Assembly (NCBI GenBank): GCA_965277925.1 | Contig: OZ255850.1 | Location: 2,855,030-2,919,029, forward strand | Direction of reading: 5' to 3' | Origin: Granulicella sp. | GTDB lineage: Bacteria > Acidobacteriota > Terriglobia > Terriglobales > Acidobacteriaceae | Length of the DNA: 64,000 nucleotides | Part shown: positions 1-62,070 of the stretch, piece by piece | Layout of the letters: each line of letters begins with the position of its first letter | How positions within the stretch are numbered: position 1 is the first letter of the stretch | Position numbers and translations under genes: made by a program | Notes under the pieces: generated by a model | Seen by the model: the letters and a program-made list of their open reading frames with translations, nothing else | The model's database searches: none | Told to the model about the DNA's origin: nothing

Positions 1-63
1 CACCCATCCCATCGCATCGAAATGCGCCCCCCGCAACTCCCTGGAAACATCACAAGGCCCGCG

Positions 64-106
64 CCAGGTCCCGCACGCGAGCAGTTTCGCTCGCCGCAGG
101 ACCCGG
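64..106. repeat. Long GC-rich hairpin downstream of the tail-fibre-like gene
   Basis: CCAGGTCCCGC-AC-GCGAGC-AGTTTC-GCTCGC-C-GCAGGACCCGG folds as an extended stem-loop about 30 nt past the stop of 137..3466; no U-tract seen. Confidence 0.5.
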
Positions 107-136
107 CTCCGCGGGCCTCCATCCACCATCCGTCAG

Positions 137-3100
137 CTATATCTTCGTCACCCACGTCCCTGCATCGCAGAACGTCGCATGTCCATCCTGCGAGAACACC
201 CACGCCCCACTTACCGCGCAGGCCCCGCTTGGCGCCGTCACCGGTCCCATCTGATACGGTATCGTCGTCCCGCCATCACTCCCCACCTGGAACTGGTTGC
301 TCGCACCGACATTGAACATCGCGGCCGGACTCTCGCCCCCGATACTCACATCGCCCGCTCCGTTCACCACCACGAAGTCGCCCACAAACGCCTGCCCGAT
401 CTTCAGATTCCCTGTCCCGCCCGCATCGAAGATCTGCCAGTAGTGCCCACTCCCCGGACTCCCGCAACCCGTCTGCAACGAGTTGCACATCCGGAAACCT
501 ACCCCGCCCGTCCCGCTATTCACCAGCGCGAAGCCAAACGGATTCGGCGTCGCATTCACGGTATTGATATTCATCAGGTCGCCCGCCGTCGTCCCCGCTG
601 AATTCACCGCCAGCCCGGCAAAGCTCCCCGTTGTCCCCGAGATCGCCGCCGGCGTCGTCGCTCCGATGATCGCCCCATCCAGCGACGCCGCATGCACCGC
701 CGTCACATTCAGCGTCCCTGCATCGATCGTCCCCGCCGAAAATGCCGCCGGAGAAAACGAGTAAGGCACGCCACTCAAATACCAGGTCGCCGTGCTGCTC
801 TGCGGCTGATAGTTCAGCACATCCCTGCTCGTCGGCGTATCCATCATGAACAGGTTGTACCCCGAGTCCCACCGGTTGCACCCATGCAGATTGCAGTGCG
901 CATAAATCACCGACTGCAATCCCGCATCCACCTCGAAGTCCGTCTGCCACGGCCCCGAAACCACATATCCATCGTCGGGAGCCGTATGCGTTCCACCCGC
1001 GCCCAGATAACTGCTCACCGGCACCGCATTGGTCACCTGCCATCCCCGCAACCCCGGCCCGACATTGCCCAGGTACTGCTTGCCCGCCTGCGCATACTCG
1101 ATCGGCCTAGGCACATACTGCGTGTCCAGCTCCGTGTCCACCGTCACATACTGCTGATAAAAATGCGGCTCCTCGATCGCATCCCCTGCAGCCCACGCAA
1201 CCGTATTGGCTGCCAGCAGAAACGTCCCATCGATCTGCCGGTTCGCCGGATTCGCCACGCTCAGCACCTCCGCCATCGGATACATCGCATAGCTTCCCGT
1301 CACATCCGCTACCGTCCCGCCCGAGCTCGTGCTGTTGGCTCCGGTGTTCGCATACGTCAGCGTTTTCGCGCCCGTCGTCGTCACCGTGTAGCTTCCGTTG
1401 TAGCTCGAATCCGCCACCCCACTCACCGTCAGCGTCACTCCGTTCAGGTCCTCCGGCAGCGCATTCGCCGTCGTCACCGTCACCACATTCGCGCTGCGCG
1501 AGATCGCCGCAACACCCAGCGACACATTCAGATACGCACTCGTGCTGCCATTGCCCTGCCGCCCCACCACCGTCGTTCCGCCGCCGTCCGCGTAGTACAC
1601 ATCCGTCGCGTCGAACGAGCCAATGATCGGAAACACCTGCCGTATCCCGTTCATCGTATCGACCTTCTGCTCCAGCCCATACCCGCACAGCCCGCCCACC
1701 GCGACCACCGTTCCGCTCGCATGTACTTTATTCAGCGTCAACTTCACATGCGTCGCATCCACCACGCTGTAGCTCGCCGTCTCAAACGTCCCGCCCCCCG
1801 GATCGGCCACGCACGCCACGCCATTCGCCGCCAACCCCGCCGTGTTCGTCGCAAACCCCGCGGGCGCACCGCCGGTTTCAATCGCCAGCGTCACCGCTCC
1901 CGGCGCCAGGTTCCCTGGCTGCGAGGTCGCCGCCTGCGCCGTCGCCAGCAGCACGCTCACCGGAAAGTTCGTCCCCGCAAAACTCGCGTACGCCTCGATC
2001 GTCTTCGCTCCCCCCGATATGTACCCGCCCGAGATCGTCTTCGCCGGATTCAGGTCGATCAGAAACCGCCCATCCCCCTGCGTCCCCGCGTTCGTGCTCA
2101 CCGTCAAGTTCAGGTCCGTCGATCCCGCCGTACATCCGCCCGCGCACACTCCCTCAAACACCCGCGAGTCTTCGCTCACCTGCAGGTCATACGGATGCGT
2201 CCCCTCATCCGAGTTGTCCCGATATCCCCCCGACGATGTAATGAACTGTCCGCCCGCCAGGCAATCGCCCACGCTGTAGCAGTTCACAACATTGTTCAAC
2301 TGCACATGCTGCCCCTGCGTGTTGTAATTGCCGGTCAGCGACAGCACTCCATACGTGCTCTTGCCATACGGCAGCTTCTCCAGATTCTGCGGAAACTGGT
2401 TGCTTCCTCCCGCCGCCGCCTCGGTCGAAAGCACCAGCGCCTCCGCTCCGATCCCATACGACCCCGGCCGCAACTGCTGTATCTGTGGGCTCGACAGCGT
2501 CTCCACCTGCGCCAGGCTCGCCCCCGCGCTCAAACTCGTCCCAGTCCCCAGCGGATTGACCACCGTCACCGCCTCCGACCCGCCGCGCGCGTCCACCACC
2601 GCCCCGCCCGACACCACGCTCGAAGCGTTCACCTGGTCCGTCCCGCCATAGCTCGGCTCCACCTTCAGCCTGCATCCACTCGTGCAATCCGGGCTGGCCA
2701 GCGCATTGGCGATCCCGTTGTTCCCCGTCCCATTCGCATACTGGCTCGCATACAGCTCGCCGTTCAAATGGTTCACCTCAAGCTGCGTCCCCGCCGGCTG
2801 TCCCACCACCTGCGTCGCCGCCGGCAGCGTGCTCACCTTGCCGCCCAGCCCGCTCGCAATCGATGCGACATTGCTGTCCACATAGTTCTTGTCCGCCGCC
2901 TGGTTCGGACTCACCGGATCTCCCGGCAACACCAGCGCTCCGGTCATCGTCCCACCCGTGGTCGGCACATACGTCGACCCGCCCGCCGGAAACCCGCTCT
3001 GCGCCTGCGCAATCGCGTTGTCCACATAGCTCTTCGACACCGTCTGCATCGCCACGCTCAGCGGCAGCACCGAATTTTCGATCGCCGCCAGCTTCACCGG

Positions 3101-3466
3101 CGCGCCGCCCGTCGCCACCGCCGGAATCACCCAGTACTGCCGGCTCGTCGTCCCATCGCTCAGGTGAAACACCGCCGTATAGTAGCTCCCTGTTGGCGTC
3201 ACGTTCGCATTCGGCGCCAGCGCAATCGTCAGCGCTCCACCCGCGCCCAGCACCGCCGACGTACTCCCCGCCGCGATCACCTGCCCGCCCGCCGTCGTAA
3301 ATCCGCTCCAGCTCACCAGCACCGTTCCCGCCGCCGTCGATCCATCCGCCAGATACACCGTGTCCTGCACCGTCGTCGTCGCCTGCCCTAACGCGCCCAT
3401 CGTCCACGCCGCCATCACTGCCAGCAGCACCGAAACCAGCGCCAGACCTCGCCTCACTCCACTCAT
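137..3466 (-). CDS. Large secreted phage tail-fibre-like protein (about 1109 aa)
   Basis: ATG at 3466 with GGAGG 5 nt upstream. Sec-type signal peptide (MSGVRRGLALVSVLLAVMAAWTMGALGQ), N-terminal beta-sandwich-like segment, tail-fibre-type motifs YVPTTGGTMTGAL and DPVSPNQAADKNYVD, long Gly/Thr/Ser/Asn-rich beta body. Confidence 0.7.
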   Translation of the reverse strand: MSGVRRGLALVSVLLAVMAAWTMGALGQATTTVQDTVYLADGSTAAGTVLVSWSGFTTAGGQVIAAGSTSAVLGAGGALTIALAPNANVTPTGSYYTAVFHLSDGTTSRQYWVIPAVATGGAPVKLAAIENSVLPLSVAMQTVSKSYVDNAIAQAQSGFPAGGSTYVPTTGGTMTGALVLPGDPVSPNQAADKNYVDSNVASIASGLGGKVSTLPAATQVVGQPAGTQLEVNHLNGELYASQYANGTGNNGIANALASPDCTSGCRLKVEPSYGGTDQVNASSVVSGGAVVDARGGSEAVTVVNPLGTGTSLSAGASLAQVETLSSPQIQQLRPGSYGIGAEALVLSTEAAAGGSNQFPQNLEKLPYGKSTYGVLSLTGNYNTQGQHVQLNNVVNCYSVGDCLAGGQFITSSGGYRDNSDEGTHPYDLQVSEDSRVFEGVCAGGCTAGSTDLNLTVSTNAGTQGDGRFLIDLNPAKTISGGYISGGAKTIEAYASFAGTNFPVSVLLATAQAATSQPGNLAPGAVTLAIETGGAPAGFATNTAGLAANGVACVADPGGGTFETASYSVVDATHVKLTLNKVHASGTVVAVGGLCGYGLEQKVDTMNGIRQVFPIIGSFDATDVYYADGGGTTVVGRQGNGSTSAYLNVSLGVAAISRSANVVTVTTANALPEDLNGVTLTVSGVADSSYNGSYTVTTTGAKTLTYANTGANSTSSGGTVADVTGSYAMYPMAEVLSVANPANRQIDGTFLLAANTVAWAAGDAIEEPHFYQQYVTVDTELDTQYVPRPIEYAQAGKQYLGNVGPGLRGWQVTNAVPVSSYLGAGGTHTAPDDGYVVSGPWQTDFEVDAGLQSVIYAHCNLHGCNRWDSGYNLFMMDTPTSRDVLNYQPQSSTATWYLSGVPYSFSPAAFSAGTIDAGTLNVTAVHAASLDGAIIGATTPAAISGTTGSFAGLAVNSAGTTAGDLMNINTVNATPNPFGFALVNSGTGGVGFRMCNSLQTGCGSPGSGHYWQIFDAGGTGNLKIGQAFVGDFVVVNGAGDVSIGGESPAAMFNVGASNQFQVGSDGGTTIPYQMGPVTAPSGACAVSGAWVFSQDGHATFCDAGTWVTKI

Positions 3467-3664
3467 TGCTCCTCCAACTTCCATCTCTTCGGGCTCAATC
3501 CCAAGCCACAATCCGCATTGAACGGCATCAACTCAGTCATTCGCAAGCCGCTTCAAAAACCATCCAATCCAGCCGTCTCACAAGCCCTTTTGAAAGGGAG
3601 GGGCATCGAAGGTGGCAACTAAGTCCCGTCCCGTTTGCCTCCCGCGCCACCTTCGCCCATCTTA

Positions 3665-3880
3665 TTAGCTGACCGGAGTCGGCCCCGCCACCGGAGCCGC
3701 ACTCGCGACAGCCACGGTCGCCGCCGGCGCAAATGCACTCAGCAGCAGCTCATTGACCGTCTCCGCAAGCTGAATAAAATCCGTCGAACCGAAATGGCCC
3801 AGCGAGACGCCGCTATCGTGCGCAATCGCCAAGCCAATGTTCAAATAGCCAAGAATCGCCTGCAATTTAGACTTATTCAT
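3665..3880 (-). CDS. Small hypothetical protein (71 aa) upstream of and co-oriented with the tail-fibre-like gene
   Basis: ATG at 3880 preceded by GGAGGAG; MNKSKLQAILGYLNIGLAIAHDSG...; Ala/Pro-rich tail. Confidence 0.6.
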   Translation of the reverse strand: MNKSKLQAILGYLNIGLAIAHDSGVSLGHFGSTDFIQLAETVNELLLSAFAPAATVAVASAAPVAGPTPVS

Positions 3881-3943
3881 TTTTCTCTCCTCCGCTATTC
3901 GCGGCCTTTCTGGTAGTTCAAAATCAAACTCGCATCCCCGGGC

Positions 3944-3982
3944 GGGTGGCCCATTCATGACAGCTCCACCGTCATGAGTGGG
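3944..3982. repeat. REP-like palindrome, family A
   Basis: GGGTGGCCCATTCATGACAGCTCCACCGTCATGAGTGGG; related copies at 4636-4674, 7762-7800 and 47461-47499. Confidence 0.85.
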
Positions 3983-4071
3983 GAGCTCCACATCCCGCGC
4001 GTGCCCCCACATTGCGCCCCGCCTCATCCACCCGCTACCATCGCCTCTAGCACCTGCACCGAAAGGCACTC

Positions 4072-4305
4072 ATGGACTCCAGCAACAACTCCGCCCGCCG
4101 CTCCGAAGACATCGCCCTCGACCTGCTCAAATTCGTCGCGTCCCACGCCAACGTCGGCAGCAAATCCGCCTCCTCCACACCCGGCTTCGGCCTTCCCTCA
4201 GCAGCCAAACCCGAAGACCAGATCACCCAGATCCTCGACCTCTACGCCCGCTGCCGCGAAGCCGTCGAATCTCCCCTTCCACCCGCCGCTCCATCGAAAA
4301 AGTAG
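4072..4305 (+). CDS. Small hypothetical protein (77 aa)
   Basis: Host-like codon usage, AAAGG upstream, two amphipathic helices (EDIALDLLKFVA, QITQILDLYARCREAV); probably co-transcribed with the downstream oxidoreductase. Confidence 0.65.
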   Translation: MDSSNNSARRSEDIALDLLKFVASHANVGSKSASSTPGFGLPSAAKPEDQITQILDLYARCREAVESPLPPAAPSKK

Positions 4306-4312
4306 CCGAGCC

Positions 4313-5590
4313 GTGCGCGAAGCCGTAACTCCCCAGCCCGACGCCATCCCTGCTCCGCACGATCCCTCCACTCCCCTGCGCGTCGCCGTCATCGGCGCCG
4401 GCGCCTTCGGGCGCAACCATCTCCGCGTCTACCGCGAACTCGAAACCGCGCATCCCGACCTCGTCCAGCTCGCCGCGCTCGTCGAACCCGACCCGACCCG
4501 ACGCGCCGATCTCGCCGCCCTCTACAACATCCCCGCCTTCGCCACCGTCGCCGATCTCCTCGCCGCCCCACCCCCACAGAATTGTCATCCTGAGCGCAGC
4601 GAAGGACCTGTTTTTGTCCTTCAGCCACAATCCCCGGGTGCCCCATTCACGATGGCTTCATCATCGTGGGTGGGGTCGCACAACTCCCACGAGCAAGCAA
4701 TCCACCCCATCCACGCCGCCTCCATCTGCGTCCCCACCGTCCACCACGCCGCCGTCGCCGAGCAGCTCCTCCTCGCCGGCCTCGACATCCTCATCGAAAA
4801 ACCCTTCGCCGCCACCCTCGCCGAAGCCGACCACCTCTGCGCCCTCGCAGCCCAACACGCCCGCATCCTTGCGGTCGGCCATTTAGAGCGCTTCAACCCC
4901 GCCGTCACCGCGACCCTCGCCGCCCTCACCCACCCCATGTTCTTCGAGGCCCACCGCCTGAGCATCTTCACCCCGCGCTCCCTCGACGTCGACGTCGTCC
5001 TCGACCTCATGATTCACGATCTCGACATCGTCCTCGCCCTCACCCAATCCGCGGTGAAAGAAGTCCGCGCCGTCGGCCTGCCCATCCTCTCCGCCAAGAC
5101 CGATATCGCCAACGTCCGCCTCGAATTCGCCTCCGGCTGCGTCGCCAACTTCACCGCCTCCCGCGTCTCCACCGAGCAGGTCCGCAAGCTCCGCCTCTTC
5201 CAGCCCCACCAATATCTCTCCCTCGACTTCGCCCGCCAGGAGCTCCTGACCATCTCCGTCGACCCCGCCATCACCGCGCAGCCGGCTGCCCCACCTCTCG
5301 CGTCCGAGGCCAACCCACCGGCTGCCCCGCCTTCTGAGATGTGGGCGGGCAGCGCCACCGCGCCACCCGCCGCACAGCACCCCTCCGCCGGCCTCTCCCT
5401 CACCCGATCCGGCTTCCCCAAAGCCGAACCCCTCCGCCTGGAGCTCGAAGACTTCCTCCACGCGGTCCGCACCCGCACGCAACCCCGCGTCTCCGCCGAA
5501 GCCGGACGCGCCGCCCTCTCCCTCGGCCTCGAAATCAACGCCCAGATCGCCGCCCACGCCCGCCGCACCGGCCTTAAAAACAGTGATTAG
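4313..5590 (+). CDS. Gfo/Idh/MocA family oxidoreductase
   Basis: Rossmann VAVIGAGAFGRNH, EKP motif (ILIEKPFA), VGHLERFNPA, DLMIHDLDI. GTG start at 4313 is estimated. Carries an in-frame REP-derived insertion at about 4570-4700. Confidence 0.9.
   Translation: MREAVTPQPDAIPAPHDPSTPLRVAVIGAGAFGRNHLRVYRELETAHPDLVQLAALVEPDPTRRADLAALYNIPAFATVADLLAAPPPQNCHPERSEGPVFVLQPQSPGAPFTMASSSWVGSHNSHEQAIHPIHAASICVPTVHHAAVAEQLLLAGLDILIEKPFAATLAEADHLCALAAQHARILAVGHLERFNPAVTATLAALTHPMFFEAHRLSIFTPRSLDVDVVLDLMIHDLDIVLALTQSAVKEVRAVGLPILSAKTDIANVRLEFASGCVANFTASRVSTEQVRKLRLFQPHQYLSLDFARQELLTISVDPAITAQPAAPPLASEANPPAAPPSEMWAGSATAPPAAQHPSAGLSLTRSGFPKAEPLRLELEDFLHAVRTRTQPRVSAEAGRAALSLGLEINAQIAAHARRTGLKNSD
4583..4610. repeat. 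REP-like palindrome, family B, inside the oxidoreductase CDS
   Basis: TGTCATCCTGAGCGCAGCGAAGGACCTG; close copy TGTCATCCCGAGCGCAACGAAGGACT at intergenic 10081-10107. Confidence 0.85.
4636..4674. repeat. REP-like palindrome, family A variant, inside the oxidoreductase CDS
   Basis: GGGTGCCCCATTCACGATGGCTTCATCATCGTGGGTGGG. Confidence 0.8.
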
Positions 5591-5640
5591 TGATTAGAAA
5601 AAGAACTCCGGGTCCCACATCCCACTCGCGGGGGCCCCCA

Positions 5641-5760
5641 ATCCTCTACTCCTTACCCACTACCCACTACCCACTACCCACTACCCACTGTCTCTCACCA
5701 ATCCTCTACTCCTTACCCACTAACCACTAACCACTACCCACTAACCACTGTCTCTCCCTA
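5641..5760. repeat. Nested tandem repeat: two 60-bp units, each with about five TACCCAC/TAACCAC heptamers
   Basis: 5641-5700 and 5701-5760 both begin ATCCTCTACTCCTTACCCACTA and end near CCACTGTCTCTC; located between convergent genes. Confidence 0.9.
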
Positions 5761-6651
5761 CTCCACCTTCTGCACCGCCGCTTCCGGCGGAATCTTTAAC
5801 TCGAACTGGTCGCTCTCAAACGGCGCATTCAGCGTCAGCTTCGTCACCACGATCTTCAGCGAATACTCATCCAGCGGCCGTTGAATCGTGATCACCGTCG
5901 GAAACTTCTGCCCATTGAACTCCTGGTACTTGTTATAGGTCGCCAGCGTCACGATCTTCCCGTTCTCATACGTGTCCTGCTCATACGGCAGCATCGTAAT
6001 GCGGCTGATATGCACCACCCGCTCCCGCATCATGATGTTGCCGGTCTGCGGTTTCAGCACCGTAATATCGTAATCCGGCTCCTCCACCGCATCTTTATGC
6101 TTCGACTCCGGCGCGATCACTCGCGTCGATTCCGTCAGCGTCACAAACTCATCCTTCGCCAACCCCGGCACCAGCAGCGAATCCAGAAATACCGCCGGCC
6201 GCAGATTCTCCAGCGCGTTCTTCGACGGCTTCGTCACCGTATTGCTGCCTGTCATCCACACATCGCCATGCCCGGCCGTAGCGTGCACCAGCGTAAACAT
6301 CTTCCCGTCGCTCACCATATCCAGCGCCCGCGATCCCACCAGCGGCAACTGCAGAATCACCCGCAGCATCGCCGGCTTCTGCACAAAAATATACCCTCGG
6401 AACGACGTGTAAACCGTCACCGTCCCTTCCTTCGCCCCACCCGTGCTGGCCGTAATCAGCACGCTCGCATTCAGCGTCTTCAGCGCCGCATCCCGCGCCG
6501 ACAGCTCCTGCTCCAGCGTCCCCACGCTGGCCGTCCGGTACATATCCGGCGCCAGCACCTTCTGCACGACGTGCGTCGTCCGAAAGCAGCCGGTCAGCCC
6601 TGCCATCATCACCACAGCCAGCGCCGATAGCGGTCGAAAATCTCTCATCAA
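5758..6651 (-). CDS. Lipoprotein, LolA/LolB-like (DUF4292-like)
   Basis: Lipobox GLTG-C; motifs FRGYIFVQKP and LDMVSDGKMFTL; C-terminal DEYSLKIVVTKLTLNAPFESDQFELKIP is typical of LolA/B-fold proteins. Confidence 0.65.
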   Translation of the reverse strand: MMRDFRPLSALAVVMMAGLTGCFRTTHVVQKVLAPDMYRTASVGTLEQELSARDAALKTLNASVLITASTGGAKEGTVTVYTSFRGYIFVQKPAMLRVILQLPLVGSRALDMVSDGKMFTLVHATAGHGDVWMTGSNTVTKPSKNALENLRPAVFLDSLLVPGLAKDEFVTLTESTRVIAPESKHKDAVEEPDYDITVLKPQTGNIMMRERVVHISRITMLPYEQDTYENGKIVTLATYNKYQEFNGQKFPTVITIQRPLDEYSLKIVVTKLTLNAPFESDQFELKIPPEAAVQKVE

Positions 6652-6743
6652 TGCAGTTACTCAGTATATCGACTCGCCAACCCCTCCTCACGACTCACAA
6701 ACAATAAGGTGCCAACGACAGACTCACGCCGAGTCTTGCTTTT

Positions 6744-6835
6744 TGGTTGTCATTCCCGAAGGGAATCTGCTTCTCGCCCTTGCCGTTGCCCTTGTTTTTC
6801 TGGTTGTCATTTCGTAGGAATCTGCTTCTCGCCCT
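6744..6835. repeat. Two tandem family-B REP-like units
   Basis: TTGTCATTCCCGAAGGGAATCTGCTTCTCGCCCT and TTGTCATTTCGTAGGAATCTGCTTCTCGCCCT. Confidence 0.8.
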
Positions 6836-6849
6836 TCCAACACAACCCC

Positions 6850-7152
6850 TTACTCTTCCCCCAACTCCTCCAGCAACCGCGCCACCTGCCCCTTGGTCCG
6901 CGAAGCCCTCGGCCGCTCCGGCTTCAGCAGCTCCGTCGCCAGCTTCACATGCGGACAGCTCCCCTTCTTCGCCGCCGTCACAAACCCCTTCACAATGTCC
7001 TCAAACTCCGTCGCCAGCGTCCGCCGCATATGCGACCGGCACTGGGAGGGAGTCATCGTTTCCTTCTCAGCCGCCTTCCGCCCCTCCGCCGTCCCGCCTC
7101 GCTCCTTCACAAACTTGCCAGTCGCTCCCCTGGCGCCACCCTGTCTCCCCAT
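6850..7152 (-). CDS. Hypothetical protein, terminase small subunit-like (100 aa)
   Basis: GGAG before the ATG; N-terminal RGATGKFVK and central IVKGFVTAAKKGSCPHVKLATELL resemble TerS-like patterns. Recognised by eye only. Confidence 0.45.
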   Translation of the reverse strand: MGRQGGARGATGKFVKERGGTAEGRKAAEKETMTPSQCRSHMRRTLATEFEDIVKGFVTAAKKGSCPHVKLATELLKPERPRASRTKGQVARLLEELGEE

Positions 7153-7167
7153 TCACTCCCCCCCACG

Positions 7168-7200
7168 AAAAAGCGGGAGACCCCAGTGAGGTCCCCCGCT
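7168..7200 (-). terminator. Intrinsic terminator between the sigma-r4-like gene and the TerS-like gene
   Basis: Minus strand AGCGGGGGACC-TCACTGG-GGTCTCCCGCT followed by a T run. Confidence 0.75.
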
Positions 7201-7263
7201 CCATGTCTACTTCTCTAGAATAGCAGTTACAGGGTATTGGCTACGCCAACTTTCTCGTACCCA

Positions 7264-7953
7264 CTATCCCCTTTGCAATGAACCTCCTGCAGCCGCCGCA
7301 CGCGGCCTCGACTCTTGACAGTCCTTCAGCGGCTCCAGCATCCGGGCCGCCAGCAGCAGTTCCGTCAGCCGGTCCAGCGCCTCCGCATACCGCCGCACAC
7401 AGCTCCGCAGGCTCAACCCCAGCATCGCCGCCGCTTCCCCTTGCGTGTACTGCTGCAGCGCGATCCGCTTGATCAACTGCTGATCCAGCCGCTCCAGCTT
7501 CGACATGCACTTCTCCATATCGAAGCAGAAGATCACCACGTCCTCGAAGCTATGCATCCGGTAGCTCGACACATGGCCGCGAAACATCTCCCGGCCCATC
7601 AACGAGGGCACCCGCCCCGTCTGCATCGAGAGCCGCAGATACCGCCGCAGCATCCCCTCCGTGTACTTGCGATAGAACGCCACCTCCACCTTCGGCGCTT
7701 CCACCGCCCCAACTCTGGGCGACAGGGTGGGCTTGGGTGGCTCCTCCACCGCCCCAACTCTGGGTGGCCCATTCATGCCGGTTTTATCGTCATGAGTGGG
7801 GAACTCCTCCACCGCCCACACCTGTGGCAGCACCGCTACCACCCGTCCCGTGCTTCCCTCCCGGATCACCTGCCCCGGCTCAACCCTCTGCACCCGCTTC
7901 GGCACCAACACCAACCTTGCTGCCATTTGCTCATTTCCCATTTCCTTCTTCAT
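7264..7953 (-). CDS. Sigma-70 region-4-like HTH protein (phage late-regulator-like, 229 aa)
   Basis: ATG overlaps the upstream stop (ATGA at 7950-7953). C-terminal LERLDQQLIKRIALQQYTQGEAAAMLGLSLRSCVRRYAEALDRL fits a sigma r4/RinA-ArpU-type HTH. Contains a REP-derived insertion at 7699-7810. Confidence 0.65.
   Translation of the reverse strand: MKKEMGNEQMAARLVLVPKRVQRVEPGQVIREGSTGRVVAVLPQVWAVEEFPTHDDKTGMNGPPRVGAVEEPPKPTLSPRVGAVEAPKVEVAFYRKYTEGMLRRYLRLSMQTGRVPSLMGREMFRGHVSSYRMHSFEDVVIFCFDMEKCMSKLERLDQQLIKRIALQQYTQGEAAAMLGLSLRSCVRRYAEALDRLTELLLAARMLEPLKDCQESRPRAAAAGGSLQRG
7762..7800. repeat. Family-A REP inside the sigma-r4-like CDS
   Basis: GGGTGGCCCATTCATGCCGGTTTTATCGTCATGAGTGGG, flanked by direct repeats CCACCGCCCCAACTCTGGG. 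Confidence 0.85.
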
Positions 7954-8144
7954 CGAGCACCTCCCACGCACACAGCCGTTCGCACAGCCTTGCGTTTCGG
8001 CCCTCGCCGTCTGCCCGTCCGTGGTGCCGGAAACTCCGCCAGCCACGCCGCGCATCCGCCGCAGTAAACTCCAGCGCTCAGGGGACGCAACCACAACGTT
8101 CCGCACCCTTCACATACCTTCAATTCCACGCGAAAGTCCTTCAT
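7950..8144 (-). CDS. Small zinc-ribbon protein (64 aa)
   Basis: CEGC...YCGGC double CxxC plus a basic tail; purine-rich leader GGAGAAGAAAGAA; stop coupled to the next start. Confidence 0.7.
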   Translation of the reverse strand: MKDFRVELKVCEGCGTLWLRPLSAGVYCGGCAAWLAEFPAPRTGRRRGPKRKAVRTAVCVGGAR

Positions 8145-8415
8145 TTCTTTCTTCTCCAGGCACAGCTATCCCCTGGCGAGCCTCGGTCATTTTTCAGCGG
8201 TCGGATTGGGCTCGCTCAGTTGCTTGGGGCCGCTCGCTCGTGGTTCGCGCTCTGTGTCGCAAATCCCCGGCTGCTGCGCACCCGTTCTCATTCCTTGGCA
8301 AAGTCCGGTCCTGAGAGATCACCTGGCCCGCCACCTGTTCCCGCCGAAGCCGGCCTTCACCATCACCCAGAATCGCTGCCTGGGGCCGGCTTGCCTGCTT
8401 CGTTGAAGTTCTGCG

Positions 8416-8444
8416 GTTATAGCCGCACCCGCTCCTACTGTCAA
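8416..8444 (-). promoter_or_regulatory. Near-consensus sigma70 promoter with an overlapping palindromic operator
   Basis: Minus strand TTGACA (8444-8439), 17 nt, TATAAC (8421-8416). TGCGGTTATAGCCGCA (8412-8427) is a near-perfect inverted repeat over the -10 box. Confidence 0.75.
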
Positions 8445-8711
8445 CAAGAATTTTTCCACCCCCGCAACACTCATATAAGCCTAGTGTTTACAATTACTTA
8501 GGACTATATTAGGTGGAGTTTACATTCAATGTTTCGCCATATCTTCGCTTGTACAAGATGATCCCTCCCCCTCGGCCCTTTCCCGCCCCTGCCCTACCCC
8601 ACTAATAGCGCCCCGCCGTCCCCTACCCCAACGCCGTCCTAGCCGAACCCAATTGGCCTAATTCGATGTCACTGCCCCTGACGTCGCCCTCGCCCTTGCT
8701 TTTGCCTCTCG

Positions 8712-8790
8712 TCTCTTGCTCTTGCCTTTGCTCTTGCCTTTGCTCTTGCCTTTGCTCTTACCTTTGCTCTTGCCTTTGTCTTTGCCTTTC
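8712..8790. repeat. 12-bp tandem repeat (TTTGCTCTTGCC)n abutting a family-B REP (8794-8827)
   Basis: About five to six imperfect copies read directly; followed by TTGTCATTCCGCAGCGCAGCGGAGGAATCTGCTG. Confidence 0.85.
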
Positions 8791-8868
8791 TTGTTGTCAT
8801 TCCGCAGCGCAGCGGAGGAATCTGCTGTTACCTGACACAACACCATCAGGAGAACCACCCCAGCAACC

Positions 8869-10005
8869 CTACCTCTTGCTGCCCGCCGCGCGTCCCCCTT
8901 CGCGGCCGCTGTTCGGCCCAACCTTCATCAGATAAACAAACAGCCCATAAAACCGCGCCGTATCGAGTTCTTCCTGCACATGCACCGGCTGCATCTCGCG
9001 CTGCGGCTTGTCCGTCGCCGTCCAGCTCAGCGTGTCTCCATAACTCGGCCCTCGCGCCAGATCGACATCCACATACAGCACCCGCTCCTTCGTAATGATC
9101 TTCGGATCGAGCCACGCCGCCGCCGCCAGCTCATCCCACATGTAATAAAACTCATTGCTATACTTCGCGATATACATCGCAGCGGGCGAGTGGGACTGCT
9201 CAATCTCCGCCTTCAACTCCTTGCTGAACATCGTCTTGATCGAGATATCGACATCCGTCAGCTCGATCCGCGGCCACGCCGCCCGCAGCGTGATGTGGAC
9301 CGCCTCCGGGTCGAACCAGAAATTGAATTCCGTGCGCGGATGCGTGGCGAACTCCGGATCGTCCGTGCGCGGCGCAATACTGCCGCCCATAATCACGATC
9401 CCTTGGGTCAGCGCGGCGAACTCCGGATCGATCGACACCGCCAGCGCGATATTGGTCAGCGGCCCGGCCGCATAAATCGTCACTTGGTGCGGATGCGCAT
9501 GCACCTGCCGGATCAGAAAATGCGCCGCATCCTCGTCCAGCGGCCTGGTCGTCGGCGCCCCTTCCTCCCTCGGCGGAACCACGAACGGCCCATGATACGG
9601 CTCACCGCCCGTATGCCGGGCCAGATCCCCCCATGCGCCATACCAGGTCAAGCTCCCCACCAGCGGTCGCTCCTGCATCGTCTCCGTCTGCGACCGCACC
9701 AGCGGAAACACCGCGCCCGGCACGACCGGCACATCCGTGCGATGGAGCAGCTCCAGCATCCGCAGCGTGTGCTGCACCTCTTCCGGCTCCCACGCATTTC
9801 CCGTCACCATCGTGATGCCCAGCACCTGCACCTGCGGCGACTGCAGCAGCACCATCATGGCCATCTGGTTCGACCCACCCGGCCCCGACCCATCCTGGTC
9901 GATCACCACCAGCCGTGGCGTCTGCGCGCCCGCAGCATACAGGCCGCCCAAGGCCCAGCAGCCGAGCAGTCCGACCGCCAGCCCGTATCTGCCGGTGCGT
10001 CTCAT
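8869..10005 (-). CDS. Secreted nucleoside hydrolase (IU-NH family), non-canonical active-site motif
   Basis: Signal peptide; LVVIDQDG, GITMVTGN, IYAAGPLTNIALA, IVIMGG, TEFNFWFDPEA, MWDELAAA. ATG at 10005 preferred. Confidence 0.85.
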   Translation of the reverse strand: MRRTGRYGLAVGLLGCWALGGLYAAGAQTPRLVVIDQDGSGPGGSNQMAMMVLLQSPQVQVLGITMVTGNAWEPEEVQHTLRMLELLHRTDVPVVPGAVFPLVRSQTETMQERPLVGSLTWYGAWGDLARHTGGEPYHGPFVVPPREEGAPTTRPLDEDAAHFLIRQVHAHPHQVTIYAAGPLTNIALAVSIDPEFAALTQGIVIMGGSIAPRTDDPEFATHPRTEFNFWFDPEAVHITLRAAWPRIELTDVDISIKTMFSKELKAEIEQSHSPAAMYIAKYSNEFYYMWDELAAAAWLDPKIITKERVLYVDVDLARGPSYGDTLSWTATDKPQREMQPVHVQEELDTARFYGLFVYLMKVGPNSGREGGRAAGSKR

Positions 10006-10460: not shown

Positions 10461-12455
10461 GTGACCACGCTCCGCTCGACCTGCCTTCGCGCCTCACCGG
10501 CGCTGCTCCTGCTTGCGCTCCTCTTGCCTCTGGGCGGGTGCAAAGGTGGGATCAAGGGCCTGATCGCGCGCTTCCACCATCGCAAAGCGACGTCTCCCGA
10601 AAACAGCACCGACGACGCCAACCAGATTCAGGATGTCGTGACGTCGCCGCAGTTGGCCCTGCTGCGCTGGCCCAACTACACCCAGCTCCAGCCCGCCATC
10701 CAGACCTTCTACGACGACCGCAACGACGAACTCGCCTGGACCCGCGACCTCAAACCCACCGCCACCACCACCACCCTCATCCAGCTCTTCGCCGACGCCG
10801 CCAGGAAAGGTTTGAATCCCGAAGACTACGACGCATCGCGCTGGCCCGGCCGCCTCCAGCGTCTCGACACCATTCGCCGCACCAACGACGGCTCCGGCCA
10901 AGCGCAAACCGATGTAGCGCAATTCGATGTCGCCATGACCATCGCCGCCATGCGCTATCTCACCGATCTCCACCTCGGCCGCGTCAATCCGCAGTCGCTC
11001 AACTTCGACATCGACGTGCCAAAAAAACGTGCCGCCTTCGACGTCGCAACGCTGCTGAACGACCATGTCGTGGACTCCGGCGATGTCGCTGAAATCGCCG
11101 CCTCCATCGAGCCCCAGAGCCCCCTCTATCAAGCAACTGAGCAGGCCCTCGCCCACTATCTCGACCTGGCCGCTCGACAGAGTGCAACTCCCCAACCACC
11201 GTTGCCGGCCATCGGCGCAAGCGGCGTCAAGCCCATCGCAATCGGCGGCTCCTATCCGGCTCTGGCGGAGTTACAGCAGCGGCTCCAGCTTGAAGGTGAC
11301 TCGTCAGCCACACCTTCAGTCAGCCCATCCACCTCCGATCAATCGCCAGCGCAGAACCCCATCACCTCCCGGGTGCCCCATGTCTCGCTTCTGAGACATG
11401 GGCTTCACCTCAGCTCGGAGCCCGCGAAACAACCTGCGCAGGAACCCGTCCAGGAGAGCCCCGCACCGGCCCCAGCCCCGAGGAACTACAACGCGGAGCT
11501 CGCAGCCGCCGTCAAGACCTATCAAACACGCCACGGCCTCACCGCCGACGGCAAACTCTCCCAGGCCACCATCGATTCGCTCAACGTCCCCATGACCACG
11601 CGCGTTCAGCAGCTCGACGACGCGCTCGAGCGCTGGCGCTGGCTGCCGGACAACTACGTCCAGCCGCGCGTCATCGCGAACCTGCCCGAGTTCACCGTCC
11701 GCGCCTACGCCCCGGACCACACCCTGGTCTTCAAGATGAAGGCCGTCGATGGCGAAGCCGACGGCACACATGACACTCCGATGTTTGTGCGCCTGATGCG
11801 CTACGTGGTCTTCAGGCCTTACTGGAACCTGCCCCCCGACATCGTCAAGAAAGACCTCCTGCGCCACGTCGAAAAGGATGGCGCCGGTTATCTCGCGCGC
11901 AACGCATACGAAGTGACCGACAGCGCTAACAAGCCCGTAACGGGATGGAAGGCCGCCGACCTCGAACACGGCCGCTACCGCGTGCGCCAGAAGCCCGGCC
12001 CGAAGAATTCGCTCGGCCTGGTGAAATTTCTCTTTCCCAACGGGTACGACATCTACATGCACTCGACGCCGGAGTTGAACCTGTTCAACCTGACGCTCCG
12101 CGATCGCTCCCACGGCTGCGTGCGCCTGCAGGACGCCGCCCAAATGGCGCTATGGGTACTCTCCAATGACCAGCCCGATCCCGCCACCCAGACCAAATGG
12201 GACGCGCAAGCCATCGACGCCGCCATGAACACCGACGACCCCGACCACAACAACAAGACGGTCAACCTGAAAACAACGCTTCCCGTAGTCATCGCCTACT
12301 TCACCGCCAACGCCGACGAGGACGGCACCATCCACTTCTTCAACGACCTCTACGGCTACGACCAGCAACTCCACTCGGCCCTGTCCAAAGGCCGCCCCTA
12401 CGAGCAAATACCCGTGAAGATCAATCCGAAGCTGACGCCGGGCGAGACGGAGTAG
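10461..12455 (+). CDS. L,D-transpeptidase, YcbB/LdtD type (lipoprotein)
   Basis: Lipobox PLGG-C; peptidoglycan-binding AVKTYQTRHGLTADGKL; ERWRWLP, ANLPEF, PYWNLP; catalytic IYMHSTP...RSHGCVRL. GTG start is estimated. Confidence 0.92.
   Translation: MTTLRSTCLRASPALLLLALLLPLGGCKGGIKGLIARFHHRKATSPENSTDDANQIQDVVTSPQLALLRWPNYTQLQPAIQTFYDDRNDELAWTRDLKPTATTTTLIQLFADAARKGLNPEDYDASRWPGRLQRLDTIRRTNDGSGQAQTDVAQFDVAMTIAAMRYLTDLHLGRVNPQSLNFDIDVPKKRAAFDVATLLNDHVVDSGDVAEIAASIEPQSPLYQATEQALAHYLDLAARQSATPQPPLPAIGASGVKPIAIGGSYPALAELQQRLQLEGDSSATPSVSPSTSDQSPAQNPITSRVPHVSLLRHGLHLSSEPAKQPAQEPVQESPAPAPAPRNYNAELAAAVKTYQTRHGLTADGKLSQATIDSLNVPMTTRVQQLDDALERWRWLPDNYVQPRVIANLPEFTVRAYAPDHTLVFKMKAVDGEADGTHDTPMFVRLMRYVVFRPYWNLPPDIVKKDLLRHVEKDGAGYLARNAYEVTDSANKPVTGWKAADLEHGRYRVRQKPGPKNSLGLVKFLFPNGYDIYMHSTPELNLFNLTLRDRSHGCVRLQDAAQMALWVLSNDQPDPATQTKWDAQAIDAAMNTDDPDHNNKTVNLKTTLPVVIAYFTANADEDGTIHFFNDLYGYDQQLHSALSKGRPYEQIPVKINPKLTPGETE
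11371..11402. repeat. Palindromic REP inside the L,D-transpeptidase CDS
   Basis: GGGTGCCCCATGTCTCGCTTCTGAGACATGGG; degenerate intergenic copy at 42862-42890. Confidence 0.85.
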
Positions 12456-60930: not shown

Positions 60931-62070
60931 CTATCTTCGCCGCCGGCCGGCCGGCCGGTGTGCTGGACGATGCGCCATGCGCTTGTTCCGCGTAGCCTTG
61001 CTGTCGTGGGCGGCAGCGCCAATCGCAGTGGTCGCATCGGTCGGCTCGTTCCGCGCCCGGTAGCTCGCCACATTCGCGTTGTGTTCGGCTAATGTCGCCG
61101 CAAATCGGGTTGCCCCGTTGGCGTCAGCAACGAAGTACAGATAATCCGTTCTGGCTGGGTGCAGCGCGGCCTGGAGCGCCGCCAGCCCGGGATTGCAGAT
61201 CGGCCCGGGCGGCAGCCCTGCATGCGTGTAGGTGTTGTAGGCCGAATCCGAGTGCAGCTCGCTCTCAAGGATCGCGCCCGTCCAACTCCCGCGAGTCCCC
61301 TGCAGCAGCGACGCGTAGATCACCGCCGGGTCGGTCTGCAACGGCATTCCGGCCGCCAGCCGGTTCTCGAATACGCTCGCCACCACGGGCCGCTCCGGGT
61401 CCAGATGCACCTCCTTTTCGACCAGCGAGGCCATCGTCACCGTTCGCTGCACGTTGCCCTGCATGCGCAGGCCGTCGGCCACCTGGCCGAAGCGGCGCAC
61501 CATCACGCTCAGCATCTGCACCGGCGTGGCGCGGGGGCTGAAGCGGTAGGTGTCGGGAAAGAGGAAGCCCTCCAGCGACTGCGGCTTCGGATTTTTCGCG
61601 TTCGTCCACGCCGCGATCAGCTCGGTGTGTTCGACCTCGGCCTGCAGGAACGCGTCGCGCGTGCTCAGCCCCGCTCCCGCCACCGCGTTGGCGATATCGA
61701 AGATGTTGAAGCCCTCGGGAATGACCACCGTCTGGGTGTAAACATCGCCGCGGCGAATGCGGTCGTACACCTCCGCCAGCGTGGCCGGACGATCAAACCT
61801 GTATCCGCCGGCCTTCAACGAGGCAGCCCGGGTTCCACCGCGAAGGCCCTTCCACACCTTCATGGCCTCGAAGGCAGCCGCGCTGCGAACGACCCCGGCC
61901 TGCTGCAACTCGCGCGCGATCTCCGCGGTGCCGGTGCCGGGCGCGATGTTCACGAACGTCGCCGCCTTCGGCCCGAAGGGCGTACCTACCAAAACGCCGA
62001 CGGCTGCCGCTGCCAAGGCCGCGAGAATCGCCAGGACCAACACCACCTTCAACAGCCGCACACGCACCAC
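60931..62070 (-). CDS. mltG: Endolytic transglycosylase MltG
   Basis: VVIPEGFN, LEGFLFPDTY, MASLVEKE, PLQTDP, YNTYTHAGLPPGPICNPG, YLYFVA. Confidence 0.95.
   Translation of the reverse strand: MVRVRLLKVVLVLAILAALAAAAVGVLVGTPFGPKAATFVNIAPGTGTAEIARELQQAGVVRSAAAFEAMKVWKGLRGGTRAASLKAGGYRFDRPATLAEVYDRIRRGDVYTQTVVIPEGFNIFDIANAVAGAGLSTRDAFLQAEVEHTELIAAWTNAKNPKPQSLEGFLFPDTYRFSPRATPVQMLSVMVRRFGQVADGLRMQGNVQRTVTMASLVEKEVHLDPERPVVASVFENRLAAGMPLQTDPAVIYASLLQGTRGSWTGAILESELHSDSAYNTYTHAGLPPGPICNPGLAALQAALHPARTDYLYFVADANGATRFAATLAEHNANVASYRARNEPTDATTAIGAAAHDSKATRNKRMAHRPAHRPAGRRRR

Follow-up and report, generated by a model that had tools for sequence, protein, structure and literature searches.

A contiguous phage-derived gene cluster of Granulicella and related Acidobacteriaceae as a candidate domesticated, gene transfer agent-like system

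The closest described systems to the locus considered here are the RcGTA-type gene transfer agents (GTAs) of the Alphaproteobacteria, reportedly laid out for Rhodobacter capsulatus by Lang, Zhaxybayeva and Beatty in 2012, and PBSX of Bacillus subtilis. RcGTA has a dedicated activator, GafA, with a sigma-region-4-like domain; PBSX, a non-replicating particle of phage origin that is fixed in its host, packs host DNA and kills rather than transfers. Phage-like regions common to Granulicella, Terriglobus and related genomes, and to viral operational taxonomic units from peat and tundra, have been described as Terriglobales putative proviruses (clusters 140/153, Eichorst et al., 2018, PMC5900883; group (ii), Demina et al., 2025, PMC11924767). 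Both papers treat these regions as (possibly active) prophages and give no conserved site, family-wide vertical descent, selection, domestication or GTA reading (PMC5900883, PMC11924767). Here we analyse a 64,000-nucleotide stretch of a Granulicella sp. genome (assembly GCA_965277925.1, contig OZ255850.1; G000:C1:2855030-2919029 in our numbering; called the window throughout), which cuts into a contiguous, phage-derived gene cluster of ~22 kb (G000:C1:2841395-2863578). Very probably this cluster is host-fixed, vertically inherited and under selection. Our best reading, to which we give a modest preference, is that it is domesticated and encodes a GTA-like, DNA-packaging particle, a function predicted from its genes; that it still makes such a particle in this particular genome seems to us close to an even question.

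An earlier reading of the window from its letters alone (the sequence-only reading) had picked out five co-oriented minus-strand genes and proposed a dispersed, integrase-less, GTA- or tailocin-like module, of which further genes might lie left of position 1. All five open reading frames (ORFs) are real and conserved genes, and the further genes were found: when the genome sequence is read leftward, an unbroken run of co-oriented genes, from TerL to p74, adjoins the left edge of the window. The window holds the right-hand, regulatory and fibre end of a contiguous head, neck, tail and DNA-packaging gene set. The module is therefore not dispersed, since the genes for TerL, portal, capsid, adaptor and tail run on from that edge without a gap, and the remark that capsid and portal genes are missing is true of the window, but only because its edge cuts the cluster. 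In order of transcription the cluster of this genome begins with a direct repeat, a promoter and a structured leader, followed by genes for a Zn-ribbon protein, a sigma-r4-like helix-turn-helix (HTH) protein and p100, then by LolB-like and f23/Gfo genes, and then by p71 and a large fibre-like protein. It continues left of the window with TerL, a HipA-like kinase, a DUF3037 protein, the portal, p209, p137, the major capsid protein, a head-tail adaptor, p127, p179, p326, p800 and p74. Every cluster gene is intact in this genome.

A TerL scan of one genome per species found 271 relatives, and the figures out of 80 loci given below refer to the best of these. TerL, the large terminase subunit (543 amino acids, aa; minus strand), reaches the window only with its start (1-7), and its start codon at base 7 had been overlooked. 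It matches Terminase_6C (E 1.6e-5) and phrog_2 (E 5.8e-26), is full-length in 80/80 loci, and keeps a Walker-A-like KARQMGMTT and nuclease motifs. The portal (455 aa; PF04860, E 6e-48) is full-length in 58/68 loci, and the head-tail adaptor (207 aa) matches phrog_442 (E 7e-18). The 323-aa protein p323 (genome 2847337-2848308) is assigned as the major capsid protein by transitive homology: distant relatives match the PHROG 'major head protein' (E 3e-8), and the family profile matches Gp6.1 of PDB 9vel (E 0.002). A tblastn search with the capsid against 50,697 phage records returned no match, and its AlphaFold2 model, built from 15 near-identical sequences, was too poor for use (predicted local distance difference test score, pLDDT, 35). 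No match was found for p209 (209 aa), p137 (137 aa), p127, p179, p326, p800 (800 aa) or p74 (74 aa, with a C-terminal membrane anchor, ending at genome 2841395), and the small conserved proteins have nothing in Pfam. The tail genes are candidates, assigned purely by position.

Like RcGTA, the cluster is a chromosomal set of head, tail and packaging genes, comparable in size and lacking integrase and replication genes; it resembles RcGTA too in its vertical descent across a large clade with frequent secondary loss and purifying selection, and in having a sigma-region-4-like activator (GafA in RcGTA; a candidate here). It differs in showing no homology beyond the superfamily level (portal PF04860 and the terminase nuclease domain), in lacking a tape measure, in its embedded HipA-like/DUF3037 pair, in the signal peptide of its fibre-like protein, and in its phylum. 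Among 10 cluster proteins searched for RcGTA signature families only the portal PF04860 and Terminase_6C matched, with no other such Pfam; HK97 capsid PF05065, protease PF04586 and Phage-tail_3 went unmatched, and membership in an RcGTA-like homologous family was rejected. PBSX is unlike the cluster in its contractile tail, xre repressor and lysis genes, and no homology to it was detected. The tailocin half of the earlier proposal (R-/F-type) falls away, with capsid, portal and TerL present and no sheath, tube or baseplate family matched. The genomic marks expected of a GTA are found: phage-type head and packaging genes in a host chromosome (TerL, portal, capsid, adaptor), with tail genes by position; the lack of modules for integration, excision, replication or lysogeny in the searches described below; inheritance that is vertical, at a locus conserved across the clade; and purifying selection on the structural genes, despite stops and deletions in several relatives. 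The description of the module as fixed, phage-derived, integrase-less and a GTA-type candidate is in this way supported, and the linked TerL, portal and capsid genes for which a neighbourhood search had been suggested are present, as are head and tail genes.

All 80 best loci (in Granulicella, Edaphobacter, Tunturiibacter and Bryocella isolates and metagenome-assembled genomes, MAGs) carry the cluster, in three gene orders. In order C, mltG, LolB, Gfo (on the opposite strand) and f23 precede Zn-HTH-p100-TerL-HipA-DUF3037-portal-p209-p137-capsid-adaptor-p127-p179-p326-p800-p74. In order A, that of the present genome, the Zn-HTH-p100 block stands on the other side of LolB-Gfo-f23, and in order B, of an Edaphobacter/Tunturiibacter clade, the genes run Zn-HTH-p100-p209-f24-p137-capsid-adaptor-p127-p179-p326-fibre-TerL-HipA-DUF3037-portal-p800-p74. 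The outer flanks in many species are greA, ruvX and mltG on one side, and p74-f16-purE-purK-E2 acyltransferase-lipB and lpd on the other. A peat MAG (L096, GCA_003138715.1) reads mltG-Zn-HTH-p100-f54-f39-LolB-Gfo-f23-p71, the last 178 aa of p800, and p74-E2-lipB; it is an in-situ deletion that displays both ancestral flanks at once. The form turned up in 143 collection blocks and represents a population that is abundant in peat. The outer flanks are rearranged in the present genome, with mltG 53 kb rightward (window ~61,000-62,000, minus strand) and E2/lipB 464 kb off. In many other genomes mltG directly precedes the Zn-ribbon gene; here the DNA inserted or rearranged into that ancestral junction includes a nucleoside hydrolase, an L,D-transpeptidase, the complex I operon, flp and others.

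The capsid gene was found in 233/401 sampled Acidobacteriaceae genomes (a tally that includes G042 and G065; 231/399 without both), in 185/295 high-quality genomes and in 108/142 genera, nearly always as one full-length copy without stops and at 75-90% identity. A class-level sample has it in 24/28 genomes of the family and in 0/172 genomes of 12 other families of the class, and in the 16 genomes of sister families that were searched neither the HTH nor the fibre family turned up. Patchiness, which the sequence-only reading had held to tell against a fixed system, is moderate: several relatives have in-situ deletions or stop codons. The cluster is also carried by 23 IMG/VR contigs. A distant relative on a 107-kb contig (L119, IMGVR_UViG_3300030503_000212; capsid 48%, TerL 33% and portal 35%) is without the HipA/DUF3037 pair, and may be a cousin element or a free-phage lineage ancestral to the cluster.

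Disagreement with the host in trees or distances, also named beforehand as telling, was not seen: cluster protein distances track those of host flank genes (Mantel r = 0.89, intercept ~0.03, against Gfo+LolB+MltG; r = 0.57 against E2+PurK+PurE), in a test that is not fully independent, the flank genes being linked to the cluster. The host signal was usable from these linked genes only, since the unlinked marker LepA is 90-96% identical within the genus and too flat to test co-divergence. The tree of TerL+HipA+DUF3037+portal requires just one move of the head-tail block (support 100). Ratios of nonsynonymous to synonymous change (dN/dS, by Nei-Gojobori, with dS near saturation at ~1 and the values accordingly rough) were 0.10 for the capsid, 0.20 for the HipA-like kinase, 0.26 for DUF3037, 0.27 for both TerL and portal, 0.45 for the fibre protein, 0.48 for the HTH gene and 0.66 for p100, compared with 0.10 for host E2 and 0.13 for host PurK. 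Neutral values were not seen, all being < 1; the structural genes are under purifying selection (dN/dS 0.10-0.50), and the capsid is conserved as strongly as core metabolic enzymes. As read from these comparisons, the pattern is that of a single capture long ago and of vertical descent under selection since then, rather than of repeated prophage integration.

The absence of an integrase and of an att duplication, remarked upon in the sequence-only reading, extends well beyond the window. No tyrosine integrase was found within 400 kb of the cluster (with no separate search for serine recombinases), nor any tRNA from -50 to +30 kb, and a comparison of the two borders yielded no att repeat, the sole 14-mer common to both being the core of a genome-wide repetitive extragenic palindromic (REP) element. 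In none of the 80 loci was a replication, repressor/lysogeny or recognisable lysis module found. The cluster has host-like GC content at third codon positions (GC3 0.62-0.83), and the shared codon bias, the REP elements and the host genes between the ORFs had all been correctly described. REP-B cores number 13 in the 22.6-kb cluster compared with 8.3 per 100 kb genome-wide, a ~7-fold density which suggests long residence, and REP-B copies break no cluster gene. REP-B (gcagattcc...ggaatgacaac, often then aaggcaa/gagcaa repeats) fills nearly every spacer of the cluster, for example window 6700-6850 and 8650-8850 and the majority of the gaps between genes left of the window. In-frame inserts derived from REP elements occur in the HTH protein, TerL and Gfo. 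That of TerL (genome ~2854230-2854370) consists of THDxKxxMNGPP-type peptides in the variable linker between ATPase and nuclease. Several other genomes (L013, L026, L032) have similar inserts at this site: either it is a hot spot at which insertion is tolerated, or one old insertion is shared.

The right-hand end of the cluster carries the parts with which it is probably controlled. A near-consensus sigma-70-type promoter, TTGACA-N17-TATAAC (8416-8444, minus strand), with a conserved TGTGGAAAA ahead of it, is conserved across genera (18 loci) and is the predicted promoter of the Zn-ribbon gene. Farther upstream lies a direct repeat, AGCGAAG-ATAT-GGCGAAA (8533-8549, minus strand; 7+4+7 bp, 11-bp period), which precedes the Zn-ribbon gene in ~15/18 loci with the consensus RGCGAA-N5/6-RGCGAA, and in every locus where repeat and -35 box were both matched the repeat lies 103-105 bp upstream of the box. 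It is single-copy in the window and has 45 copies in the genome compared with ~11 expected. We regard it as a candidate site for a predicted host factor of the response-regulator type. Between promoter and Zn-ribbon gene runs a leader of ~270 nt, which may fold, just upstream of the Zn-ribbon ribosome-binding site, into a hairpin GCGAGCC...CCGACCG...GGCTCGC (8176-8215, minus strand). RNAalifold on 14 loci gave 8 pairs, 3 of them with compensatory changes, around an invariant CCGACCG loop; the hairpin belongs to no Rfam family, and an Rfam scan of window 1-9000 was empty.

The first gene of the cluster encodes Zn64 (7950-8144, minus strand), a 64-aa zinc-ribbon protein with a basic tail, the four cysteines of which (CxxC-N13-CxxC) do not vary among 21 homologues. 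In 17/20 loci the stop of this gene and the start of the HTH gene overlap (as ATGA, GTGA or TTGA), so that the translational coupling predicted for the pair is confirmed as a conserved arrangement. HTH229 (7264-7953, minus strand) has a C-terminal HTH that had been called sigma-r4-like. This likeness has something to stand on, in a match to Sigma70_r4_2 (E 1.4e-4) and in precomputed PF04545/PF08281 assignments of some homologues, but the match lies under the Pfam cut-off. HTH homologues number > 1,290, are typically 212 aa long, and are nearly all unannotated. The REP-derived in-frame insert of HTH229 is near residues 60-90, with a REP-A core at 7763; it occupies window 7700-7830 and is flanked by duplicated PRVGAVE(E/A)P. 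The Zn-ribbon/HTH/p100 block heads the cluster in all three gene orders and is retained in relatives without structural genes. HTH229 is a probable DNA-binding protein and, by analogy with GafA of RcGTA, a candidate activator, and the pair may serve as the cluster's own activator. The elements present through which the host may exert control are a promoter, a phased direct repeat, a leader hairpin and the Zn-HTH pair.

Two further components deserve mention alongside the head and packaging genes. The HipA_2-like kinase (288 aa; Pfam HipA_2) and the DUF3037 protein (306 aa; Pfam DUF3037) lie between TerL and portal in about 73/80 loci and are better conserved than TerL. The same two families make up PDC-M66, a candidate defence system of PADLOC, the profiles of which they match, weakly, at E 4e-7 (PDC-M66A, kinase) and E 4e-10 (PDC-M66B, DUF3037). 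Unlike PDC-M66, the pair here is a fixed, strongly conserved part of the element and not a variable moron. p100 (6850-7152, minus strand; 100 aa, with a core LRPxQCRxY...IVxGFVxEAKKGSCxHxKLAxELL) had been called small terminase (TerS)-like, which found no support in Pfam, PHROG or PADLOC, nor in PHROG when 16 homologues were scanned singly. It follows the HTH gene in all orders, abuts TerL or p209 in orders other than A, and is directly upstream of TerL in L016, L024 and L066 only; it is kept as a small-terminase candidate for its size and its TerL adjacency in order C.

The fibre-like protein TF1109 (137-3466, minus strand; 1109 aa) combines a Sec-type signal, a Cys-rich body and a variable C-terminal tip. 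It belongs to no Pfam or PHROG family and has no PDB profile match, and none of its > 870 homologues is annotated. Its gene lies upstream of TerL, co-oriented, in 71/80 loci, and is missing from that place in L016, L024 and L066, where the rest of the cluster is kept. The body of ~900 aa is conserved, with many invariant Cys pairs, while the tips are of at least 5 types that do not follow phylogeny. Over its last 36 aa TF1109 shares 75% identity with the C-terminal end of gp12, a tail-module protein (1190 aa) of the lytic Tunturiibacter phages Tunturi_1 and Tunturi_2, the gene of which lies just upstream of tail-fibre and pectin-lyase genes (PP887698, PP885685; PMC11924767). The tip alone is common to the two; the phages are lytic, with 63-kb genomes and a capsid unrelated at the BLAST level. 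The layout of body and tip and the tip shared with phages fit a receptor-binding protein. A signal-like N-terminus (positive charge, hydrophobic stretch, A/G-Q cleavage-like site) is seen in 19/20 aligned sequences, the row of L043 being blank, and the Sec-type assignment derives from sequence pattern and conservation, without a dedicated predictor. The name 'tail-fibre-like' given to this protein at first sight thus suits its conserved body and swappable, phage-shared tip, but a Sec-type signal does not befit an ordinary virion protein. The AlphaFold2 model (pLDDT 41) was too poor for use, and Foldseek with it gave no PDB match and, in BFVD, only a small, ~80-aa beta-barrel domain in large proteins of uncultured tailed phages at TM-scores <= 0.1.

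The rival that survives best, which we nevertheless hold to be unlikely, is that Zn-HTH-p100 is a host regulatory cassette and TF1109 a phage-derived secreted adhesin or fibre, both merely linked to the head-tail cluster. It would account for the Zn-HTH(-p100) frames that are intact where structural genes have been deleted (L096, G001, G004, G008 and G017), for the conserved Sec-type signal and Cys pairs of TF1109, and for the three loci in which TF1109 is not beside TerL though the rest of the cluster is present. Against it, Zn-HTH-p100 stays at the cluster head in all three orders despite rearrangement, with p100 abutting TerL or p209, TF1109 is co-oriented directly upstream of TerL in the great majority of loci, and the HTH and TF families, like the capsid in its larger sample of 172 genomes, were not found outside the family (16 sister-family genomes).

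Somewhat less likely again are particles, filled with DNA or empty, that act as a PBSX-like bacteriocin or killer, with the fibre tip setting which neighbours die. Such a system would have the same anatomy as a GTA-like one, and tips that ignore phylogeny and are shared with lytic phages are the pattern of a targeting module under diversifying pressure; however, nothing recognisable as a contractile sheath, tube, baseplate or other device for killing was found, and TerL and portal are among the best conserved parts, so that packaging itself appears to matter.

Under the GTA-like reading, an ancestor of the Acidobacteriaceae would have captured a tailed phage and retained its head, neck, tail and packaging genes as a host-owned machine. 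Expression would start at the one conserved promoter, governed by a host factor on the phased direct repeat and by the leader hairpin, and the coupled Zn-ribbon/HTH pair would then activate the cluster, as GafA does for RcGTA. TerL and portal would fill assembled capsids with DNA, p100 perhaps acting as small terminase, giving a gene transfer agent-like particle. The exported fibre-like protein would supply or modulate surface recognition through its exchangeable tip, and we speculate that the HipA-like kinase and DUF3037 arrest or mark the producer cell, or defend against phages.

Several observations weigh against this interpretation, among them the linkage of the flank genes, the flatness of LepA and the near-saturation of dS given above. 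The assignment as a GTA is a prediction from genes, as are the particle, its expression and the two functions that define a GTA, the packaging of random host DNA in pieces too short to hold the cluster and the transfer of that DNA to recipient cells. Lysis genes, a tape measure and a recognisable tail family were not found in the cluster by Pfam, PHROG and PDB searches; p209, p326 and p800 had no PDB match in profile searches and no PHROG match when all alignment members were scanned; and the recognised genes do not establish the ability to build a complete particle. The Sec-type signal and Cys pairs of TF1109 are more in keeping with a surface protein that is exported than with a component of a virion put together in the cytoplasm, and this export, so far irreconcilable with ordinary cytoplasmic assembly, is the main unexplained feature. 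Four relatives have the Zn-HTH block but no structural genes, so the regulators may have another job. Around 40% of the sampled family genomes are without the capsid gene. Damage is also seen within the window's genus (24 genomes): the portal is present in 14/24, 3 with in-frame stops; the fibre gene in 15/24, 3-4 of them split or stopped and 2 cut to the first ~130 codons; and the HTH gene in 17/24, 3 with stops, compared with 24/24 present and 0 damaged for the LepA control.

Four genomes of the genus have the HTH gene but no portal. In the deletion derivatives G001, G004, G008, G017 and L096 the stretch from the fibre gene to most of p800 is gone, and Zn-ribbon, HTH, p100 and p71 are intact. 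The element has been lost or inactivated repeatedly, which lowers our confidence that every copy works; RcGTA-like clusters are likewise often lost or inactivated. An old, functionless prophage remnant decaying slowly by inertia would agree with the in-frame stops, frameshifts and in-situ deletions in several genus members, with the absence from some two-fifths of family genomes, and with the lack of a recognised lysis or tail family. We nonetheless find it improbable, for the capsid is full-length, stop-free and at 75-90% identity across 108 genera, its dN/dS equals that of core enzymes, TerL is intact in every locus, and promoter, phased repeat, leader hairpin and stop/start overlap are conserved across genera. 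An active temperate phage or a capsid-forming phage-inducible chromosomal island (cf-PICI)-type satellite with a preferred integration site, to which the viral calls of prediction tools, the IMG/VR contigs and the listing of similar regions as putative proviruses (PMC5900883, PMC11924767) would point, is very improbable for an element that has housekeeping flanks, no tyrosine integrase within 400 kb and no att repeat or nearby tRNA, that in none of the 80 loci shows a replication, repressor or lysis module (an intact temperate prophage being rejected on the same grounds), and that is single-copy, with distances tracking the host flanks and gene order inherited clade-wise.

Between the regulatory and fibre ends of the window lie three genes that are no part of the GTA-like system. 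The LolB/LolA-like lipoprotein gene (5758-6651, minus strand; weak DUF4292/LolA_like matches) is found elsewhere outside the cluster, between mltG and the Zn-HTH block, and the gene for a Gfo/Idh/MocA oxidoreductase (4382-5590, plus strand; PF01408, E 1.4e-23) has the same flank position in other genomes. Upstream of Gfo lies f23 (4072-4305, plus strand), a 77-aa gene overlooked before, which has no Pfam match and is 60-78% identical to a small ORF at the matching place in at least 14 loci. It had been concealed within a spurious Pro-rich N-terminal extension of a 538-aa ORF (3974-5590), the true Gfo start being near 4382. These genes look interleaved because order A puts Zn-HTH-p100 beyond them, and the interleaving proposed in the sequence-only reading is not a functional one, because other genomes show the un-rearranged order; as judged from those genomes, LolB-like, Gfo and f23 are host genes caught between two blocks by local rearrangement. 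The in-frame REP insert of the Gfo/Idh/MocA translation is at 4570-4700, and another occurs in that of an L,D-transpeptidase (11310-11480). p71 (3665-3880, minus strand), a 71-aa protein that had been taken for an orphan, is encoded directly upstream of the fibre gene, a place it holds in at least 7 genomes; seven homologues share a conserved core at 58-74% identity, and it is still present in L096. The idea that p71, f16, f24 and f54 are related LL-H-holin-like proteins was dropped, as the hidden Markov model of each family fails to find the others.

Two other observations concern the surrounding genome. No part of the genome has a stronger GC skew than the region from 2829000 to 2871000 (window -26 kb to +16 kb), where the plus strand shows -0.2 to -0.39. 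Genes on the minus strand there prefer G to C at third codon positions (+0.45 to +0.76), those on the plus strand C to G (-0.33 to -0.74), and because third positions skew by strand we take this as a strand-specific mutational bias and not a coding effect. Within the cluster the capsid gene departs from this (+0.17), perhaps through selection on its codons, and skew is patchy genome-wide. At genome 676,000-700,000 there is a separate Mu-like prophage, which has terminase, portal and capsid besides a MuB-like gene and a transposase-like gene of 700 aa. It further carries an f24 homologue at 49% identity and an ORF that resembles f39 to the eye only; f24 and f39 are small accessory genes inside the domesticated cluster of other genomes.

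A full-text literature search found no paper proposing a GTA in Acidobacteria. The fullest form of our proposal, which we put forward tentatively and as a possibility only, is that of a first Acidobacteriota GTA: an independent domestication fixed at the base of the Acidobacteriaceae, with DNA-filled particles that many soil and peat species would still make, a response-regulator site and leader RNA feeding a Zn-ribbon/sigma-r4 pair, HipA-like/DUF3037 proteins committing the producer, and Sec-exported fibre tips setting the recipients. The published Terriglobales provirus groups are probably, at least in part, the same element. The cluster is routinely labelled a provirus, in IMG/VR and in these published groups, and if it is host-owned then counts of lysogeny in Acidobacteria are inflated. 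This stretch supplies what the structural genes by themselves would hide, namely the promoter architecture, the Zn-ribbon/HTH pair, a candidate small terminase and a secreted fibre; it also explains the 'interleaved' host genes and shows deletion derivatives that retain the regulators. Promoter, pair, small-terminase candidate and fibre offer concrete handles with which culturable strains might be made to express the system.

Acidobacteriaceae rank with the most abundant and most active bacteria of acidic soils, peat and tundra, and to our knowledge almost nothing is known of gene exchange in them. If the GTA-like reading is true, the cluster would be a new, independent case for the study of phage domestication, and a host-owned DNA-packaging particle, present in most of the family's genera, would be a major path, not yet measured, by which genes move horizontally in soils.

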